Of a DNA stretch of 45,074 nt, positions 7,394 through 26,298 are shown in pieces (within the stretch, counting starts at the first letter, position 1; every line of letters begins with the position of its first letter). A program made the position numbers and the translations under genes. A model generated the notes under the pieces. It had not been told where the DNA came from. It searched no databases and was given only the letters and a program-made list of their open reading frames with translations. Source of the DNA: a virus. Its lineage: Duplodnaviria; Heunggongvirae; Uroviricota; Caudoviricetes. The stretch covers positions 1-45,074 of the IMG/VR virus record IMGVR_UViG_2908567220_000008; one strand, given 5' to 3'.

Positions 7394-8212
7394 TTAGTTA
7401 AAATTAAGGCTTTTCCCGGCAGCGACTAACATATGATCGTAGTATTTAGACATATCTTCGCTACTTAGCAAGTTGAAGACATTGTCAGCATAACCTCCAA
7501 CCAAGTTAAGTTGCTGAGAGTGCGCTTTTTCCTGAGGTGTATCAGCAGCATAAACCACAAAAGTCTTCACGCAGTTATTCCACTTGGTCTTAGCTGCGTT
7601 TATTGTCACAGCTTTAAACGCTGACTCACCCATTTTTTGGCGATTATTGGAAATCCGTAGATCTAAGGTTTCAGTTAAATGATAAATTCCATTTTTTAGT
7701 AAAAGTTCAGCATAAAGACCTTCAGATTCAGAAAGCGGATACCCCTGAACCACTTTATGCTCGCTAATTTCCTTGAGATTCTTACCCATAACTCCTTCTT
7801 TTTCAAACCTATCCTTAAGCTCGGTAATAATTCTTTTTTGAGAAACTTCAGTTCTTTTCTTCGCTCGCTCAGGTGTTATGAATAATTTATTTAATTCATT
7901 GATTTTTAATTCATATTCACGTTCATTGGCAGCATGAAATGTACCTACGCTTGACAAGGCAAAGCTACCTTGGAAAAAGAGAGAAGCCTGTTCGATGCTT
8001 AAGCCAGAAGTTAAAATAGTCTCCAGTTGCTTCTGGCTATTTTCTAATGCTTCAAGCCCAAAATCATTTGTAATAGCTTTTAGTTTAGTAGGGGTTTCTA
8101 TGACGCGCACATCTGGGCCAGATGGCTTCATGACGACAAGGCCAACGTTGATTGTCTCGGCGCGGACAGGGTTCGGTGTTATTCTGACAATACTGTATTT
8201 ATATGTATTCAT
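7394..8212 (-). CDS. DUF3037-like protein (272 aa), partner of the HipA-like kinase
   Basis: N-terminus YSIVRITPNPVRAETINVGLVVM resembles the DUF3037 family (from memory, needs HMM confirmation). ATG overlaps the kinase stop (ATGA). Visibly AT-rich. Confidence 0.6.
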   Translation of the reverse strand: MNTYKYSIVRITPNPVRAETINVGLVVMKPSGPDVRVIETPTKLKAITNDFGLEALENSQKQLETILTSGLSIEQASLFFQGSFALSSVGTFHAANEREYELKINELNKLFITPERAKKRTEVSQKRIITELKDRFEKEGVMGKNLKEISEHKVVQGYPLSESEGLYAELLLKNGIYHLTETLDLRISNNRQKMGESAFKAVTINAAKTKWNNCVKTFVVYAADTPQEKAHSQQLNLVGGYADNVFNLLSSEDMSKYYDHMLVAAGKSLNFN

Positions 8213-9033
8213 TTCAGCACCTCCCCTCTAACAGTGTCGATTCGTTTCATTCTGCCGTCGCTTGACCACCAGGTTAGCAGAGCATCCCTCTGCAAAGGAT
8301 TGATCCATGCTTCCGGCATGTCTTCAAAAATCCGTTCTATCGTGCTAGAGCTAATTCTGGATAGCTTATCCAATACAGCTTCCGCAGGCGCTTTACACGA
8401 AACATCATTATATGTCAACTGCTTGATCGCTTGCCAGCAGTTTGTGGTGTTGTAGCCCATTGGTATTAGGGCTGCGTCGGTTTTGTTCGGCCAACCCATA
8501 ACCATAGCTGCAAGGCTGAAATCGAAGGCTTGGATAGTCAGGTTTCCATATCGGTTCTTAGTGTACAGATAGTTACCAATATGCCTATCAATATTAAATA
8601 CGAACTGATCGAAGGCGTAAACTGACCATACTTGCTTCCGTAGAATAGAAGGTCCGGACATCAATTCAGCGGCAAAGTTAATTTCTTCTTGTGGCTTACT
8701 CATGGCAGCCAGGTCATATTTTGATCCAAAAAAGTGCTCTCCTGTATCCGGGTCAATCAAAACCCTACAGGCCGGGGTAGGAAGCCCACTAAATTCAGCA
8801 AGTTTAGTACATAGCCATTCTGATGCTGGAATTTGCTTTGGGTGGGGAATCCCTGTCAAAGCGGATGCATCACCATCAGAAACCCCTTTTATTGCATACT
8901 CTAAACCGTCGGAGGCCATAACTGTATGCCTTAGGTGAGCTGTGCCCATTGCTGGCTTATAATCCACAATCTCAAGACTAAACAAGGGTTCTTGAATAGT
9001 AATGTTCTTTTCAGGTTGTGAGTCTTCTTCCAT
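8209..9033 (-). CDS. HipA-like / CtkA-like atypical kinase-fold protein (274 aa)
   Basis: FNIDRHIGNYLY matches the N-x-D-x-H-x-x-N catalytic-loop pattern of HipA-family kinases (E. coli HipA has D-x-H-x-K-N). AT-rich coding sequence. Confidence 0.6.
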   Translation of the reverse strand: MEEDSQPEKNITIQEPLFSLEIVDYKPAMGTAHLRHTVMASDGLEYAIKGVSDGDASALTGIPHPKQIPASEWLCTKLAEFSGLPTPACRVLIDPDTGEHFFGSKYDLAAMSKPQEEINFAAELMSGPSILRKQVWSVYAFDQFVFNIDRHIGNYLYTKNRYGNLTIQAFDFSLAAMVMGWPNKTDAALIPMGYNTTNCWQAIKQLTYNDVSCKAPAEAVLDKLSRISSSTIERIFEDMPEAWINPLQRDALLTWWSSDGRMKRIDTVRGEVLK

Positions 9034-9342: not shown

Positions 9343-10041
9343 TTACCCATGCTTCCTGTACGTCTGCGGCATGCTGCCGATCACCTTGCCGAACACGAAA
9401 ACACGATTCATTTCGTCTTTCTCGATCGGGTCCCAGGCTGCATAGCTCTTGTTATCTGAGATAACCAGCAGCTTGTCCTTCATCTTCTGCAGGCGCTTGA
9501 CGTGAGCAGTGTCGTCGTACAGGAAGGCGTATATCCCGTCGCCGTCGAAGCTCTTAACGCTGATGTCGACGAACAGCAGATCACCCGGCTCAATCGTGCC
9601 GGACATGCTGTCACCCCGGACGTTGATGATCCGGATGTTCTCAGCCTTACGCCCATCGAACATGTGCCGGGCTTCAGCTGGCTCATACTCAACAGAACGG
9701 AGAATCTCGACGAACTCCTGGTTCACGATGCCCGGCCCGGCACTAACCATAAGGTCCAGCACATCAATCCTGAATGCATCAGTATCCTGGCTTTTAACCT
9801 GGGCAGCGCGAGGGAGCTGGCCGTCATCGCGCATCGGTCCATTTCCGGTTGATAACCATTCAGACCTGACGCCCAAAGCATTAGCTATCTCGACAATTTT
9901 TGTTGAACCCCTGGCGTTTCCACTCACCAGGCGCCAAATGGTTGGCTGAGCAATACCTGAGGCCTTCGCAAGCGCCCCTTGTGACATTCCAGCCGAAGCC
10001 ATGGCCTCGTTTAAACGATCTGCAAGAGTTTCTTTTTTCAT
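9343..10041 (-). CDS. cI: CI-type phage repressor (HTH_XRE plus S24 LexA-like autopeptidase)
   Basis: N-terminal HTH (MSQGALAKASGIAQPTIWRLVSG) and C-terminal S24 signature (VRGDSMSGTIEPGDLLFVD ... VKRL). Start taken at the ATG at 10041; the track ORF begins at a TTG at 10104. Confidence 0.85.
   Translation of the reverse strand: MKKETLADRLNEAMASAGMSQGALAKASGIAQPTIWRLVSGNARGSTKIVEIANALGVRSEWLSTGNGPMRDDGQLPRAAQVKSQDTDAFRIDVLDLMVSAGPGIVNQEFVEILRSVEYEPAEARHMFDGRKAENIRIINVRGDSMSGTIEPGDLLFVDISVKSFDGDGIYAFLYDDTAHVKRLQKMKDKLLVISDNKSYAAWDPIEKDEMNRVFVFGKVIGSMPQTYRKHG
9347..9372. repeat. Direct repeat copy 2 (authentic 3' end of cI)
   Basis: ccatgcttcctgtacgtctgcggcat, encoding the last residues of CI (MPQTYRKHG). 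Confidence 0.7.
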
Positions 10042-10152
10042 AATCTCAAATTTATACGCTTGCGTATTACTGGTCAAAACACGTTTTGCTATTGCTAAAA
10101 CCAATACGCATTGCTATTATCATTTTGCACCAATACTTATAGGAATTGGAAC
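10042..10152. promoter_or_regulatory. Divergent cI/cro operator-promoter region (OR-like)
   Basis: Intergenic region between divergent cI and cro containing GCTATTGCTA (10088-10097) and ATTGCTATTA (10110-10119) next to CAATACG. Confidence 0.5.
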
Positions 10153-17925: not shown

Positions 17926-18240
17926 ATGCAACGTATGAACCCAACCGATGGTCACAATCTGCCTTACTGGTGGTCAGCCTTGCTTGGTATCTTTTCCGTC
18001 CTGAGTCTGCAGGATTATGTCTTCATCATTGGCGCCCTGATCTCTGCCTTCTTCACAATCAAGACGTATTACGCAAAGCGCAAGGAAGAGCGAGAGCGAC
18101 TGGATGAAGAGAAAAAACGCACGCAGCTGTTGGCCAGTTATCTGGCTGATGTCTCCGCAAAGCCTGGAGGTGACCGCCCGGCTTCAGCCGAAGTGGTAAC
18201 CGAGGCCTTGAAGCGGATCGCAAGTGATACACAGGGGTGA
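17926..18240 (+). CDS. Holin, two-TM class
   Basis: 104 aa with two hydrophobic helices ([29 protein letters not shown]) and a charged C-tail; strong RBS ggaggtgagag; first gene of the lysis cassette. Confidence 0.7.
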
Positions 18241-18746
18241 GCATGACGCCATCAATGAGGAATAAACTGATTGGCGTGATCGCCGGCGGCGGTGGCGCCA
18301 TAGCCATTGCCTCTGCGCTTATCACTGGCCCAACTGGTAACGATGGTCTTGAAGGTGTGCGCTATGACCCCTATCAGGATGTGGTAGGCGTCTGGACTGT
18401 CTGCTATGGCCATACTGGCAAAGACATCATGCTCGGCAAGAAGTACACCGAGGCTGAATGCCGTGCGCTGCTCAGCAAAGACCTGAACACCGTTGCTCGC
18501 CAGATTAATCCTTACATCCAGAAGCCGATCCCCGAGACAATGCGCGGGGCTCTGTACTCGTTCGCGTATAACGTTGGCGCTGGCAACTTCCAGACCTCCA
18601 CGCTGCTGCGAAAAATCAACCAGGGCGACCAGAAAGGCGCATGTGACCAGTTGCGCCGCTGGACCTACGCCAAGGGCAAACAGTGGAAAGGCCTGGTAAC
18701 TCGCCGCGAGATTGAGCGCGAAGTTTGTCTCTGGAGTCAAAAATGA
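18237..18746 (+). CDS. SAR endolysin (T4-lysozyme-like glycoside hydrolase)
   Basis: N-terminal Gly/Ala-rich signal-anchor-release helix ([21 protein letters not shown]) and catalytic E-x8-D-x5-T motif ([17 protein letters not shown]). Confidence 0.85.
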
Positions 18747-19132: not shown

Positions 19133-19274
19133 CACCCCGCAACCGGAAATCCCTGACAACCTGACGTGGGGCCAGAGCCTAGATTTAAACGTCAGTCTCC
19201 TATCAGCGCTTGGGCAGTGCAACCGGGATAAGGCAGATATTAGGCAAGCTGTAAAGAAACAAGCGGGCCAATAA
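19017..19274 (+). CDS. o-spanin (Rz1-like lipoprotein), overlapping the i-spanin in another frame
   Basis: Start [17 protein letters not shown] with lipobox LSGC and a Pro-rich mature part; begins inside the Rz-like gene and extends past it. Confidence 0.65.
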   Translation: MMIALIALSLLAQLSGCNNSRTVYVKVPVVPLPASLTADTPQPEIPDNLTWGQSLDLNVSLLSALGQCNRDKADIRQAVKKQAGQ

Positions 19275-19301
19275 GCCCGCACTTATGGAGGATTCAAAAT
19301 G

Positions 19302-19901
19302 TTACAGAACCCACCACCTGATCGAATCTGTGGGTATGGTTGCAGCCTCGACATTCTGGATCATACCCAACTCGGTGGCCCTTCCCGGATCAATGATGGT
19401 TGCAGAAGTGATCAAATTAGCCCAGTCAATTTGCTCATCTGGGGCTACAGCGAGAGCCTCGATATTCATCACCTGCACAAATCTTTGCAAGTCGTCATCC
19501 AGACATGCCGCCCATTCCCTAAGCCTGAGGTGATCTGCTTGTGGGGCGGCAAATCCCCAATGTAAAGGATGTAATAAAAATCGCGAGAGAGGATTAGCAA
19601 ACCGCTCAGATCCAGCCATGAAAATAACATTTGCTATAGATTCCACGTTACTAAGGTTATGTGTCTTCACCTTTACAGGAAGAGACTTAAGAAAGTTGTA
19701 TGCGGTAAAACCTGCAACGGTATCTCCACCTTTACTAGAGATGTAAATCCTGATCTCAGAGGCTGGTTGGTTAGGGCTTGATATCGCTTTGAGGCAAACA
19801 TCCATAAGGCTGGATACAGAAGCAACTGTTACATCTGTCATGAAGTGTACGGTATGGATCATTTCAGTTTCCCAGAGATATGCCGCAATTGGCATTTTCA
19901 T
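19302..19901 (-). CDS. Stand-alone Clp-fold serine protease (ClpP-like, SDH-type) moron
   Basis: Alignable by eye to ClpP: IRIYISSKGGDT (ClpP LYINSPGG), FMAGSERF (ClpP AASMGA, Ser), LLHPLHWG (ClpP IHQPLG, His), Asp in DHLRLRE. Start uncertain (ATGs at 19910/19901/19895; the track TTG is at 20018). AT-rich; opposite strand to neighbours. Confidence 0.7.
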   Translation of the reverse strand: MKMPIAAYLWETEMIHTVHFMTDVTVASVSSLMDVCLKAISSPNQPASEIRIYISSKGGDTVAGFTAYNFLKSLPVKVKTHNLSNVESIANVIFMAGSERFANPLSRFLLHPLHWGFAAPQADHLRLREWAACLDDDLQRFVQVMNIEALAVAPDEQIDWANLITSATIIDPGRATELGMIQNVEAATIPTDSIRWWVL

Positions 19902-20011
19902 AATGCACATAAAGTGAAAGGTTTTCTGCGTAAACCCGGATGAAATAATTTCATGAAGTAAGGCATTACAGAGCCACTTCCAGAGGTGGCTCGATAATGT
20001 TGGAGGAAACC

Positions 20012-20650
20012 ATGTCAACGCTTAAGGATTTATCCCGGCAGCTAAAGCAGCTGCAGAAGCAAATCCCTTTCGCCACGGCGCAAGCCATGACATCGGTAGT
20101 AAGGGATATCGCCGCAGCGCAAAAGGTGGCACTGGGGCGAAAACTGGAATCGCCGACGCCGTTCACCGTCAACTCAGTGGGCTCTGCTGGCGCCAGAAAG
20201 AACAACCTCCGCGCAAAAGTCTTTGTGCGCGATGTCGCCGCTGAATATCTCGAACCCTTTGAATTTGGTGGTGAACATAAACTGAACAGCCAGGCGCTGC
20301 TCAATCCAAAGAACATCAAACTGAACAAATACGGCAACATGCCGCGAAATAAGCTGTCGCAGTTGAAAGCGAAGCCGAATGTGTTCGTAGGTGAGGTCAA
20401 TGGTGTTGATGCTGTCTGGCAGAGGCGTAAACCGAAGAAGGCGAAAAAGAAACGAGCCCGGCGCTCAGCGAATGGTACGCGCAGACCAAAGCGGAAACAG
20501 CGTGCTCCTAAGCTGCTGGTGAGGTTTGGTGATGCTCTACCTGTTACGCCTACGCTTGACTACATGAACCGCTCACGGTCAATGGCAGCCGGCTTAATGC
20601 CCGGCGCGCTGAGTAGGGCGATTGAGGAAGCGATTCGAACAGCAAAATGA
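20012..20650 (+). CDS. Hypothetical basic protein (213 aa)
   Basis: Start at ATG 20012 (MSTLKDL...); contains a Lys/Arg-rich stretch KPKKAKKKRARRSANGTRRPKRKQR; lies just upstream of the cos-like repeats. Confidence 0.5.
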   Translation: MSTLKDLSRQLKQLQKQIPFATAQAMTSVVRDIAAAQKVALGRKLESPTPFTVNSVGSAGARKNNLRAKVFVRDVAAEYLEPFEFGGEHKLNSQALLNPKNIKLNKYGNMPRNKLSQLKAKPNVFVGEVNGVDAVWQRRKPKKAKKKRARRSANGTRRPKRKQRAPKLLVRFGDALPVTPTLDYMNRSRSMAAGLMPGALSRAIEEAIRTAK

Positions 20651-20751: not shown

Positions 20752-20898
20752 TGTCCCATGTCCCACCCCAAGGGATCGCCAGCCACGCCAGAGCCAGCAC
20801 GGATTATTCCATTTATTCCAGTGGGACATTCGTGTGGGACATTGAAAAAATGTCCCAGGTAAATGTCCCACCCCAAAAATGTCCCAGGTGATGTCCCA
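20752..20898. promoter_or_regulatory. TGTCCCA repeat array, putative terminase small-subunit binding sites (cosB-like)
   Basis: Eight copies of TGTCCCA or its complement TGGGACA within 147 bp (direct at 20752, 20759, 20851, 20864, 20880, 20892; inverted at 20822, 20835); the last overlaps the terS ATG. Confidence 0.5.
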
Positions 20899-21461
20899 TG
20901 ACCACGATGAACCAGAGTCAGTACGCGCAACATTCAGGCGTCGATCGCAAGACTATTGGCCGATGGATCAAGGCTGGTCGGTTTATCGTCATGGATGGCG
21001 ACCTGATTGATGTTGAGGCGAGCGATGCCGCGCTGAAGAAAAACCGTGATGGAAAAGATCCGCGGGCATCAAACGCGAAGAAGAAAAAAGCCCCAGCACC
21101 CCGGAATGATGGCGACGATGAAATTGATGAAACCGTTCGCCAGATAATGTTTACAGAAGGTGCAGTCCTTTCCAGGGAAGAGGCCGCGCGGATCCGTGAA
21201 AATTACATGGCCCTGCAGGCAAAGCTCCAGTATGAAAAAGACAGCGGCCAGACAATTGAATTGGCCATCGCCGAGGAGGTTCTGTTTAACGCCTTTCGCC
21301 AGCAGCGTGATGCCTGGCTGAACTGGCCTTCACGCGTGGCACCGCTGATAGCCGCCGATCTGAATGTGCCGGCGGACAGGATGACAGAGGTGCTGATTGA
21401 ACATGTCCACAAACATATCTCAGTCCTCGGAGAACCAGAGTTTAACCCAGCGGAAGATTGA
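20898..21461 (+). CDS. Terminase small subunit (lambda Nu1-like)
   Basis: 187 aa; N-terminal winged-HTH (NQSQYAQHSGVDRKTIGRWIKAG); directly upstream of and overlapping the large terminase. Confidence 0.8.
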   Translation: MTTMNQSQYAQHSGVDRKTIGRWIKAGRFIVMDGDLIDVEASDAALKKNRDGKDPRASNAKKKKAPAPRNDGDDEIDETVRQIMFTEGAVLSREEAARIRENYMALQAKLQYEKDSGQTIELAIAEEVLFNAFRQQRDAWLNWPSRVAPLIAADLNVPADRMTEVLIEHVHKHISVLGEPEFNPAED

Positions 21462-23801: not shown

Positions 23802-25435
23802 TGAATAAAGTGCAAATCCTTGGTCCTGACGGGAGACCTTATCAGGCACCAAAACCCAGCATGTTGACGGGCGGTAGCCGGGTGCCATATGACGCCGCGG
23901 ATTCCTTCAGCGATCAACTGGCGAACTGGCAGCCCGCACTATGGTCACCGGATAACGAAATTAATATCTACCGTGACCGTATAGTTTCCCGTGCGCGGGA
24001 TCTGGTCCGAAATGATGGATGGGCCAATGGTGCCATAACTCGCCTGCTTGATAATGCGGTCGGCGCCAATTTCCGTCCGATCATGAAGCCTGACTATCGT
24101 GTATTACGGATGATGACAGGTAATAAAAGTTTTGACGCAGTATGGGCGGAAGAGTACGGAAAAGCACTCGCTTCCCACTGGAGAACCTGGGCATACGACA
24201 CAGGCCGTTATTGTGACGTTGAGCGCAAGCTAACCGTTCCACAAATGTTGCGTCTGGCCTTTCGCCACAAGCTGATTGATGGCGATGCCCTGATGGTGCT
24301 TCAGTATCGCACCGATCGCCTTGGACCAGGTAAGGGGCGTTATGCCACGACGGTGCAGGTTGTTGATCCCGACAGACTCAGTAACCCGCAGCAGAATTTT
24401 GATATGCCGAATATCCGCGGCGGCGTTGAAATTGATGCTGACGGCGCACCTGTGGCTTATCACATACGTGAAGCACATATCGGTGACTGGTGGAGTGGCG
24501 CCAAAACAATGACATGGCGACGAATCCCGCGCGAAACCGCATGGGGGCGCCCGCACGTTGTGCACGACTTTGACCATGAGCGTGGAGCTCAGCATCGGGG
24601 GAATGGCATTCTGACTCCAGTAGTGCAACGTCTGAAGATGCTGGTGAAGTACGACCAGAGCGAGCTGGAAGCAGCAATTCTGAATGCTATCTTCGCCGCG
24701 TATATTGAGTCTCCATACGATCCCGAAATGATCCAGTCCGCGCTGGGGGAAAACTTCGAAGAGGGATTGGGAGCATACCAGGATGGTCGTGCAGAGTTTC
24801 ATAATGATCGCCGTTTGACGCTGCAGAATGGCGCCCGTATGCCGATCCTTTATCCAGGGGAGAGAATAACAACGGTCAACGCTGCCCGCCCTTACAGCAA
24901 CTTTGAGGTTTTCGAGTCTGCAGTATTGCGTAATTTCTCATCCGGTACGGGGTTATCTCCTCAGCAGGTTACACAGGACTGGTCTGATGTGAATTACAGC
25001 TCTGCGCGATCTTCCTTGCTGGAAGCATGGAAAACGCTCACCCGCCGACGTGATGATTTTTCCATGGGTACCGCTCAGCCGCTTCTGACGGCCTTTGTGG
25101 AGGAAGTTCACGATAACGAGGATTTACCTCTACCTAATGATGCCCCTGATTTTGTTGATGCCCGGGCTGCGTATTCCCGTGCGCGCTGGATGGGGCCGGG
25201 GCGAGGATGGGTTGATCCGGTGGCAGAGAAAAAAGGCGCCATTCTCGGCCTCGATGCCGGCCTTTCCACTCTCGAAATTGAAGTGGGTGAAAACGTGGGT
25301 GAGGACTGGGAAGAGATACTTGATCAGCGCCAGCGGGAAATTGAGTCCTGCCTGAAGCGCGGACTTCCATTACCTAGCTGGGCGCAGGCGGACCAGTTCG
25401 CCAGCCAGACAATTACCGATCCGGAGGAAAAGTGA
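23801..25435 (+). CDS. Portal protein (lambda gpB family)
   Basis: 544 aa following gpW-like gene; lambda-type portal by size, order and sequence. Confidence 0.85.
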   Translation: MNKVQILGPDGRPYQAPKPSMLTGGSRVPYDAADSFSDQLANWQPALWSPDNEINIYRDRIVSRARDLVRNDGWANGAITRLLDNAVGANFRPIMKPDYRVLRMMTGNKSFDAVWAEEYGKALASHWRTWAYDTGRYCDVERKLTVPQMLRLAFRHKLIDGDALMVLQYRTDRLGPGKGRYATTVQVVDPDRLSNPQQNFDMPNIRGGVEIDADGAPVAYHIREAHIGDWWSGAKTMTWRRIPRETAWGRPHVVHDFDHERGAQHRGNGILTPVVQRLKMLVKYDQSELEAAILNAIFAAYIESPYDPEMIQSALGENFEEGLGAYQDGRAEFHNDRRLTLQNGARMPILYPGERITTVNAARPYSNFEVFESAVLRNFSSGTGLSPQQVTQDWSDVNYSSARSSLLEAWKTLTRRRDDFSMGTAQPLLTAFVEEVHDNEDLPLPNDAPDFVDARAAYSRARWMGPGRGWVDPVAEKKGAILGLDAGLSTLEIEVGENVGEDWEEILDQRQREIESCLKRGLPLPSWAQADQFASQTITDPEEK

Positions 25436-26298
25436 ATCTACCTCATCTGGCCCAGCGCCTTTTTAATACACCGCTGGCGCTGCACCCAAGTAAAGCTGAA
25501 GTCATCATGGCATCCGTTATGGACCGGTTTGGCATCAGTAAAATCGAATCCTCTCTTGCCATGGATGATGACTGGTATGGATACGACGATAACCGGGGGC
25601 GGGAATCCCGTAGCGACCCGGGTTATGACAATGTGTTGGGCGTCGCTGTCATCCCGATATGTGGGACCCTGGTGCAGAAGCTGGGTAGCCTGCGCCCATA
25701 CAGTGGCATGACAGGCTATGACGGCATTCGTCAGGCCTTCCTGACTGCGATGGAAGACCCCGATATTACAGGGATCTGCCTGGATATTGATTCGCCAGGA
25801 GGCGAGGTCGCCGGATGTTTCGATCTGGTCGATGTCATTTATGGCGCCCGCGGGAAAAAGCCCATCCATGCCATTCTGACGGAAAGCGCCTATTCCGCCG
25901 CCTATGCGATTGCCAGTGCGGCGGACCGGATTTCTGTTCCCCGAACCGGTGGTGTGGGTTCAGTTGGTGTGATCACTATGCACCTTGACTGGACCCAGCG
26001 GATAAAAGATGACGGCCTCAAAGTCACCATCATCACCTACGGTTCCCGTAAGGCTGAGGGGTCACCGCTGAGAGAGCTGTCAGATGAAGCGCTGGCGGCT
26101 ATTCAGCAGGACATCAACACCATGGGCGAATTGTTTGTGAATACCGTCGCCAGAAATCGGGGGATTAGCGCAAAGGTTATCAAAAGTACTCAGGCTGCCT
26201 GTTTTATGGCTGCTGATGGTGTGGAACTTGGACTGGCTGATGAGGTGTGTCCTCCTGATGCTGCGTTCAGAAACTTACTTGAAAAAACAGGAGCCTGA
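25432..26298 (+). CDS. Prohead protease (S49 / lambda gpC family)
   Basis: 288 aa S49 (SppA-like) peptidase; GTG start at 25432 preceded by ggagg and overlapping the portal stop. Confidence 0.85.
   Translation: MNLPHLAQRLFNTPLALHPSKAEVIMASVMDRFGISKIESSLAMDDDWYGYDDNRGRESRSDPGYDNVLGVAVIPICGTLVQKLGSLRPYSGMTGYDGIRQAFLTAMEDPDITGICLDIDSPGGEVAGCFDLVDVIYGARGKKPIHAILTESAYSAAYAIASAADRISVPRTGGVGSVGVITMHLDWTQRIKDDGLKVTIITYGSRKAEGSPLRELSDEALAAIQQDINTMGELFVNTVARNRGISAKVIKSTQAACFMAADGVELGLADEVCPPDAAFRNLLEKTGA

Follow-up and report, generated by a model that had tools for sequence, protein, structure and literature searches.

The subject of this work is a small gene in a viral DNA record of 45,074 nucleotides (IMG/VR record IMGVR_UViG_2908567220_000008, positions 1 to 45,074; Caudoviricetes). 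This whole stretch, hereafter the window, comprises the complete genome of a temperate phage of the Klebsiella/E. coli type. The gene lies on the minus strand between the lysis genes and the terminase genes, and it encodes a truncated paralogue of the protease subunit ClpP. An earlier reading of the window (the original prediction) had described it as a stand-alone ClpP-like serine protease encoded at 19302–19910 and carried as an independently expressed moron. The features of the gene and of the cassette that holds it are as follows.

19302–19862, minus strand: coding sequence of the truncated ClpP paralogue, 186 amino acids, N-terminus MIHTVHF (most likely start)
19638–19640, minus strand: codon of the predicted catalytic Ser75 (VES motif), which aligns with the active-site Ser of E. 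coli ClpP and is invariant in the family alignment A2
19569–19571, minus strand: codon of the predicted catalytic His98 (LLHP motif), which aligns with the ClpP active-site His
19401–19403, minus strand: codon of Ala154, at the position of the canonical ClpP Asp in the alignments (Pro151 in PpClpP1)
19253–19280, minus strand: intrinsic terminator found by a terminator scan, hairpin GCGGGC-TTAT-TGGCCCGC followed by TTGTTTCTTT
19863–19970, minus strand: conserved 5' region of 108 bp with a Shine-Dalgarno-like GGGAA and a candidate extended −10 element (TGAAATTAT)
19971–19992, no strand assigned: hairpin GAGCCAC-N8-GTGGCTC at the upstream edge of the cassette, found in the same place in all close relatives

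The gene encodes a member of the PpClpP1 family

The closest solved relative of the window protein is PpClpP1 of Pseudomonas plecoglossicida (PDB 9UXT), to which it shows 34% identity over 184 residues (E 3e-39). When the family profile A2 was searched against the PDB, 9UXT was retrieved at E 6e-57 with 195.6 bits, and the canonical ClpPs came next at about 1e-13 with at most 53 bits. An AlphaFold2 (AF2) model of the protein had a predicted local distance difference test score of 94.3 and a predicted template modelling (TM) score of 0.90. In a Foldseek search of the PDB with this model, the top match was again 9uxt_A, with TM scores of 0.91/0.93 and a root mean square deviation of 1.5 Å; the canonical ClpPs reached TM scores of about 0.75–0.8. 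These results show that the protein is a member of the PpClpP1 family, with a truncated ClpP fold and an intact Ser-His pair. No close family member was found in the BFVD viral structure library, where every match was at most 25% identical.

Searches with hidden Markov models (HMMs) bear out the prediction of a ClpP-like protein, since Pfam CLP_protease scored 46.4 bits against a cut-off of 20.2 (E 5e-12). This match covered only profile positions 43–124 of 182. The scores for the NCBIfam equivalog and subfamily models of ClpP were far under their cut-offs (TIGR00493, 25.9 vs 308.6; PRK00277, 35.3 vs 249; PRK12553, 42.9 vs 228). The top NCBIfam match was Clp_rel_HeadMat (NF045542), at 48 against a cut-off of 120, and the top PHROG was phrog_94, “head maturation protease”, at 1e-22 and over residues 14–142 only. 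An alignment with E. coli ClpP (A1) showed that the protein begins at the ERVIFL column, where strand β1 starts, about 40 residues into the precursor; the N-terminal region that comprises the axial loop and helix αA is wholly missing.

The original prediction had placed Ser, His and Asp in the expected spacing, and the first two of these residues stand. Ser75 and His98 are invariant among 41 diverse members of the family, and in a wider set Ser is kept in 205 of 208 members and His in 206 of 208. The Asp does not stand: the canonical column was sought in alignments with E. coli ClpP and with the 208 family members and is non-acidic, being Ala154 in the window protein and divided among Ala (91), Gly (32), Ser (30) and Pro (15) in the wider set. 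The active site predicted from these alignments comprises Ser and His and lacks the canonical Asp. Further features conserved in the family are E74, W102, D110-H-x-R113, E116, D124 and a C-terminal WW, and the acidic residues E116 and D124 are located in the handle helix. The prediction had assigned no role to the protein, and membership of a family with biochemistry and a structure published in 2026 narrows this question.

The reading frame and its conservation

A scan for open reading frames (ORFs) confirmed a minus-strand frame with its stop codon ending at 19302, as predicted; the predicted start at 19910 was not confirmed. The RefSeq version of the protein (WP_223717460.1, “ATP-dependent Clp protease proteolytic subunit”) is 199 residues long and starts at 19901. 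Among 90 homologues, most are 178–187 residues long with an N-terminus of MIHTVHF or MLHTVHF, which corresponds to an ATG at 19862. Two IMG/VR relatives (L014 and L015) share the 186-residue protein at 100% identity, and in both an in-frame TAA stands immediately 5' of this ATG; the upstream “extension” is therefore not part of the protein in those relatives. Because of the homologue lengths and the TAA, we rejected both 19910 and 19901, and the true start is most likely ATG 19862. A Shine-Dalgarno-like GGGAA is found 8–12 nt 5' of this codon.

The N-terminal extension of the original prediction is thus, from these comparisons, evidently an artefact of ORF calling. The original prediction had proposed to check it for a signal peptide or transmembrane segment, and we found no hydrophobic segment in the protein with the extension included: the maximum Kyte-Doolittle mean over 19 residues was 1.3, and therefore neither a transmembrane segment nor a signal peptide is present. 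This candidate was rejected on the missing hydrophobic segment and on the untranslated state of the extension in some relatives.

The ratio of nonsynonymous to synonymous substitution rates (dN/dS) was 0.07–0.09 in comparisons with homologues at 78–89% amino-acid identity, which shows that the coding frame is under strong purifying selection and that the gene is selectively maintained. The same gene in the same prophage occurs in seven complete E. coli genomes at 99.8% identity, and the cluster of identical proteins carries the label Klebsiella pneumoniae complex.

Anatomy of the cassette

The gene is carried by a compact unit with recognizable edges. The intrinsic terminator lies directly 3' of the stop codon on the minus strand, with its hairpin at 19263–19280 and a fold energy of −14.4 kcal/mol; no T-tract accompanies this hairpin on the plus strand. 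At the other end, the candidate extended −10 element TGAAATTAT, found by eye, sits inside a palindrome, TGAAAT-T-ATTTCA (19941–19953). The edge hairpin at 19971–19992 occurs in three relatives (L014, L015 and L033) as a variant, GAAGCCC...GGGCTTC, in which the pairing is preserved, and the folds have energies of −12.4 and −12.6 kcal/mol. A T-tract is absent on both strands of the edge hairpin, which is therefore not a standard terminator; it may function as an operator or insulator, or mark a recombination edge.

About 135 bp upstream of the gene, up to the edge hairpin, are near-identical in eight close relatives (L013–L019 and L033), and beyond the hairpin the sequences and the divergent neighbour genes differ among them. 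The conserved edges with different neighbours define a unit of about 0.74 kb at approximately 19253–19998. In the related Klebsiella phage Mulock the flanks align and the cassette does not, the o-spanin gene being followed straight by the next gene; in ST405-OXA48phi1.2 and several other related phages, the same slot holds a GrlR-like “negative regulator”. The GC content is 0.46 in the coding sequence and 0.45 in the cassette vs 0.55 in the lysis genes and 0.55 in the packaging genes, in agreement with the predicted AT-richness. With its own terminator, its conserved edges, a slot that is empty or otherwise filled in relatives, and the varied accessory slots described below, the reading as a moron, that is, self-contained and counter-oriented cargo, is strongly supported.

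Genomic setting in the window

The surrounding genes agree with the predicted position and with the prediction that this is an extra protease. On the opposite strand to its surroundings, the gene is flanked by Rz1, which ends at 19274, and by a divergent gene at 20012, with the terminases beyond; the head module has a prohead protease of its own, to which the ClpP-like protein is unrelated. The principal features of the window are as follows.

1–1260: integrase
9343–10104: cI-type S24 repressor
17926–18240: holin
18237–18746: lysozyme
ending at 19274: i-/o-spanin (Rz1)
20898–21461: small terminase, with large terminase, gpW and portal after it
25432–26298: S49 prohead protease (Peptidase_S49 match, 9e-28)

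Lambda-like recombination genes follow the integrase; replication genes, the Q antiterminator and tRNAs precede the lysis cassette. Downstream of the S49 protease are decoration and capsid proteins and then a Mu-type contractile tail. The slot and orientation of the cassette are those of lambda bor.

Several other genes of the window were recorded. The divergent gene next to the cassette (20012–20650, plus strand) matches phrog_1924, “minor tail protein”, at 5e-59, and its product includes an extremely basic segment (KPKKAKKKRARRSANGTRRPKRKQRAPK); a tail-protein gene would not be expected upstream of the small terminase. Adjoining the cI-type repressor is an AT-rich gene pair (7394–9033, minus strand; GC 0.38–0.46) that encodes a HipA-like kinase (8209–9033; HipA_2, 1e-6) and a DUF3037 protein (7394–8212) with a weak match to PADLOC PDC-M66B. 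This pair resembles a second cargo unit or a candidate module for defence by the immunity region. In an AT-rich region past the tail genes lies an acyltransferase (Acyl_transf_3; 40229–41320, minus strand), a candidate modifier of surface polysaccharide, and near the end of the window there is an IS3-family transposase (rve; 43327–44193, plus strand).

The family is common cargo of unrelated temperate phages

Relatives of the gene are encoded on 126 IMG/VR contigs and on only six records of isolated phages, where they are annotated “hypothetical” or “head maturation protease”. A library-wide HMM search gave 118 cluster representatives (clustered at 50% identity) at E<=1e-30, nearly all of them 180–195 amino acids long. 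For a census of genomic context, ORFs were called around 79 viral loci, the neighbours were clustered, and the cluster representatives were annotated.

At 40 of the 79 loci, the gene stands directly downstream of a repressor gene of the Arc/Mnt type (82–97 amino acids, ribbon-helix-helix), with an ATGA overlap. The Mnt-type repressor of these loci is divergent from arc and a KilA-N/P22_AR_C antirepressor, and together they make up an immI module. At 22 of these 40 loci, the gene adjoins the gp16-type ejection gene of P22-like phages, a site downstream of mnt that corresponds to the position of sieA in P22. At 11 of the 40, for example in PhiR12_1, the whole module is inserted by tail gene L of lambda-like tails. 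A block of antirepressor, arc, mnt and the ClpP-like gene was seen between tail genes L and K in phiv205-1 (L093), in PhiR12_1 (L094) and in 11 IMG/VR loci. From this placement in lambda-like siphoviruses, the immI-type block is mobile as one unit beyond the P22-like phages.

Elsewhere the gene occupies other positions. It is convergent with the lysis cassette at 19 of the 79 loci, as in the window, and adjoins the tail-fibre assembly genes of P2-like elements at six. In a Proteus lambdoid prophage it is counter-oriented between N and the ERF/SSB recombination genes; in Mu-tail prophages it is found at the end, beside the invertase; and in Chromobacterium it lies between the lysis and tail-fibre genes. 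At most of the loci (56/79), the nearest genes of at least 100 amino acids on both sides are on the opposite strand. The phages concerned include P22-like, lambda-like, P2-like and Mu-tail types, and the hosts include Klebsiella, E. coli, Pectobacterium, Proteus, Enterobacter and others. This census shows that the family is common cargo in unrelated temperate phages and sits in the accessory slots of at least five phage types.

Three further settings of family members were noted. In a group of relatives at 78% identity (L020–L026; about 7374–7922 in L020), a protein of 182 amino acids that matches phrog_5483 is encoded directly upstream on the same strand; it had no Pfam or PADLOC match and carries an RNKRSH (Rx4H, HEPN-like) motif, and the two genes may form a two-gene cargo unit. 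In the Proteus loci (L131–L133, 6421–8051), a pair of genes for an ImmA/IrrE-type Peptidase_M78 and a DUF4411 protein lies between N and the S24 repressor and is another accessory module of the immunity region. In Pseudomonas sp. NPDC090755 (L120, 4–8543), the one Pseudomonas locus inspected, the family member follows closely on genes for a CdiA-like filamentous haemagglutinin (DUF637) and a DUF2247 protein, in a locus for contact-dependent inhibition and not in a prophage.

A possible role in the lysogen and its alternatives

The biochemistry of PpClpP1 provides the starting point for an interpretation. PpClpP1 is N-terminally truncated and forms a homotetradecamer with an axial pore of 42.7 Å (PMC12900304, PLoS Pathog 2026). 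Its active site is Ser73-His96-Pro151, in which Ser to Ala or His to Ala substitutions abolish activity and P151A or P151D retain about 60% of it; the activity is about 13-fold below that of the canonical PpClpP2, and ClpX is not bound (PMC12900304). Together, PpClpP1 and PpClpP2 form a stable heterotetradecamer, which does bind ClpX and exceeds both homomers in activity. The gene is described in that paper only as a second chromosomal clpP locus, and phages are not mentioned (PMC12900304).

By homology with PpClpP1, the window protein would form tetradecamers in which the pore is wide and ungated and the intrinsic peptidase activity weak, and we consider the formation of such an open-pore particle probable. 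The axial N-terminal loops, which serve as the pore gate and as the dock for ClpX and ClpA, are missing, and by the same analogy it is highly probable that the protein could not dock with an unfoldase by itself. It would instead co-assemble with the housekeeping ClpP of the host into hybrid particles that still use host ClpX and ClpA, with an altered activity (higher in the case of PpClpP1P2). Action through such hybrids is possible, and we hold this step with slightly more doubt than belief.

With respect to timing, Q-dependent late transcription must run antisense across the cassette to the terminase genes, as deduced from the gene order, which suggests that conditions late in the lytic cycle do not favour the gene. 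This antisense transcription and the distal position in the mnt operon, which is expressed in lysogens, in 40 of the 79 viral relatives suggest that expression would come mainly from the prophage, and expression in the lysogen is reasonably probable. Clp-dependent proteolysis would then be retuned in the lysogen to the benefit of the prophage or the host, for example through lysogeny stability or phage resistance. Taken as a whole, we regard it as somewhat probable that the gene encodes a truncated paralogue of the PpClpP1 type that retunes host Clp proteolysis in the lysogen.

Several observations weigh against this interpretation. The formation of hybrids with an enterobacterial ClpP would be an extrapolation from a single Pseudomonas pair at 34% identity. 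No Mnt partner accompanies the window copy, and the immI argument for lysogenic expression applies to the relatives and not directly to the window gene. A scan for consensus sigma-70 promoters upstream of the gene found no site, and a relaxed scan, with matches at only 7/12, and inspection by eye gave only weak candidates. No defence or candidate-defence model of PADLOC-DB v2 was matched by the window protein or by three other members of the family (P0022, P0050 and P0069). A syntenic chromosomal family gene is present across about 20 Massilia/Telluria species, and no phage origin is described for PpClpP1 itself, so that a phage function is not inherent in the family. We found no paper that ties the PpClpP1-type family to phage biology; searches of the literature on phage or prophage ClpP-like morons, on exclusion and on PDB 9UXT returned only the PpClpP1 paper and an unrelated remark on a Staphylococcus prophage clpP.

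Of the alternatives, the one that survives best is that of a stand-alone protease for superinfection exclusion or phage defence, whose ungated tetradecamer would break down those proteins of an incoming phage that are unfolded or disordered (such as ejection or early proteins), with no need for host ClpP or an unfoldase. The slots occupied by the gene classically hold prophage-expressed exclusion or conversion genes (the sieA site in P22 and the bor-like slot), and the cargo next to the relatives includes an AbiTii protein, the 182-residue RNKRSH (Rx4H) protein and an NsnC-like protein. The open pore of 42.7 Å in the solved homologue PpClpP1 would also suit such a role. However, PpClpP1 is weakly active alone and is activated in the hybrid, the four family members compared with PADLOC matched nothing, and the vertically inherited chromosomal members in Massilia argue for a biochemical role of a housekeeping type. 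We consider this explanation unlikely.

Somewhat more unlikely is a regulator of the choice between lysis and lysogeny, namely a prophage-expressed protease that, alone or with host Clp, would stabilize lysogeny by clearing a phage regulator, such as leaky antirepressor (Ant), or a late or replication protein. The translational coupling to a Mnt-type repressor opposite arc-ant at 40 of the 79 viral loci speaks for this explanation, as does the travel of the mnt/ClpP-like/arc/ant block as a unit into lambda-like tails between L and K. Against it, the window copy and about half of the loci have no nearby immI module, and the site downstream of mnt is a general cargo site, where P22 carries sieA.

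The two remaining explanations are effectively excluded by the membership features that the protein lacks. A canonical ATP-dependent subunit, which would dock with ClpX or ClpA directly and simply add ClpP capacity, is what the RefSeq name and the above-threshold Pfam match would suggest; it is very improbable in view of the NCBIfam equivalog and subfamily scores far under cut-off, the loss of both the axial-loop region and the catalytic Asp, and the failure of the solved homologue PpClpP1 to bind ClpX. Scarcely credible is a second head-maturation protease or a fossil of one: the top PHROG and NCBIfam matches and the annotation of the phiv205-1 homologue point that way, but Clp_rel_HeadMat remained below its cut-off, none of the loci examined has the gene next to portal, scaffold or capsid genes, the head module of the window has its own S49 protease, the gene runs against the direction of the late operon, the closest structure solved so far is that of a cellular-type tetradecameric ClpP paralogue, with BFVD matches at no more than 25% identity, and a decaying fossil was rejected on this context and because dN/dS is about 0.08.

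Returning to the retuning of host Clp proteolysis, a broader picture can be drawn from it, which we put forward tentatively and regard as rather unlikely in its entirety. Temperate phages of the Enterobacterales would spread a “proteostasis-rewiring” conversion gene, commonly wired into the mnt (immI) operon, whose truncated product would enter the ClpP barrel of the host, borrow ClpX and ClpA, and alter degradation in the lysogen, thereby stabilizing the prophage, destroying proteins of competitor phages, or both.

Significance

The molecular kind of the protein is already known, as the family has been solved and characterized and the protein bears the RefSeq name of ClpP. What appears to be undescribed is the family as widespread prophage cargo and its coupling to mnt. 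So far, the PpClpP1 family has been characterized in a single fish pathogen, where it stood as an oddity, a “Ser-His-Pro” ClpP by which the canonical ClpP is activated in hybrids, without a biological rationale. The prophage setting offers it a testable biology, in the form of conflict between prophage and host or between phages that is played out through the Clp machinery of the host. The work also flags two misleading database names, “ATP-dependent Clp protease proteolytic subunit” and “head maturation protease”. If hybrids with host ClpP do form, they would be a simple route by which a phage retunes a central protease of its host, and lysogenic conversion would proceed by subunit exchange in that protease.

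Comparison with known systems

In position, the cassette resembles lambda bor, a lone counter-oriented gene just past Rz/Rz1 and before the packaging genes, and the gene of the relatives downstream of mnt and adjoining the ejection-protein genes resembles P22 sieA. Whereas Bor is a lipoprotein and SieA resides in the inner membrane, the window protein is a predicted soluble peptidase of the ClpP fold with no transmembrane segment, and it has no kinship in sequence or fold with either.

The ClpP-related head-maturation proteases of phages (NF045542 and phrog_94) share with the window protein the ClpP fold and the missing N-terminal axial loops. Unlike them, the window protein scores below the cut-off, and its gene is located outside the head module with no scaffold or capsid fusion or neighbour.

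A functional parallel is provided by the heteromeric ClpP1/ClpP2 systems of P. aeruginosa, Listeria and M. tuberculosis (ClpP1P2), in which the less active isoform gains function in mixed tetradecamers and the weaker isoform often lacks elements for docking with an unfoldase (PMC12900304). Structures from such systems (4RYF, 7M1L/7M1M and 9IF4) were among the fold matches, at about 19–22% identity to the window protein. These systems differ from the present one in that they are made of chromosomal paralogues and keep a Ser-His-Asp or Ser-His-Asn site.

The closest counterpart remains PpClpP1. The two proteins differ at the third “triad” position (Pro151 in PpClpP1 vs Ala154 in the window protein) and at the C-terminus, where PpClpP1 has W-S in place of WW, and PpClpP1 is described as chromosomal, whereas the window gene is on a prophage cassette in Klebsiella/E. 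coli. In their common features, they are of nearly the same length (183 vs 186 amino acids) with the same N-terminal truncation, both keep Ser and His with a non-acidic residue at the canonical Asp position, and they have in common the motifs GG..GF..Y, VES, HP.HW and DH.R and the acidic pair E116/D124.

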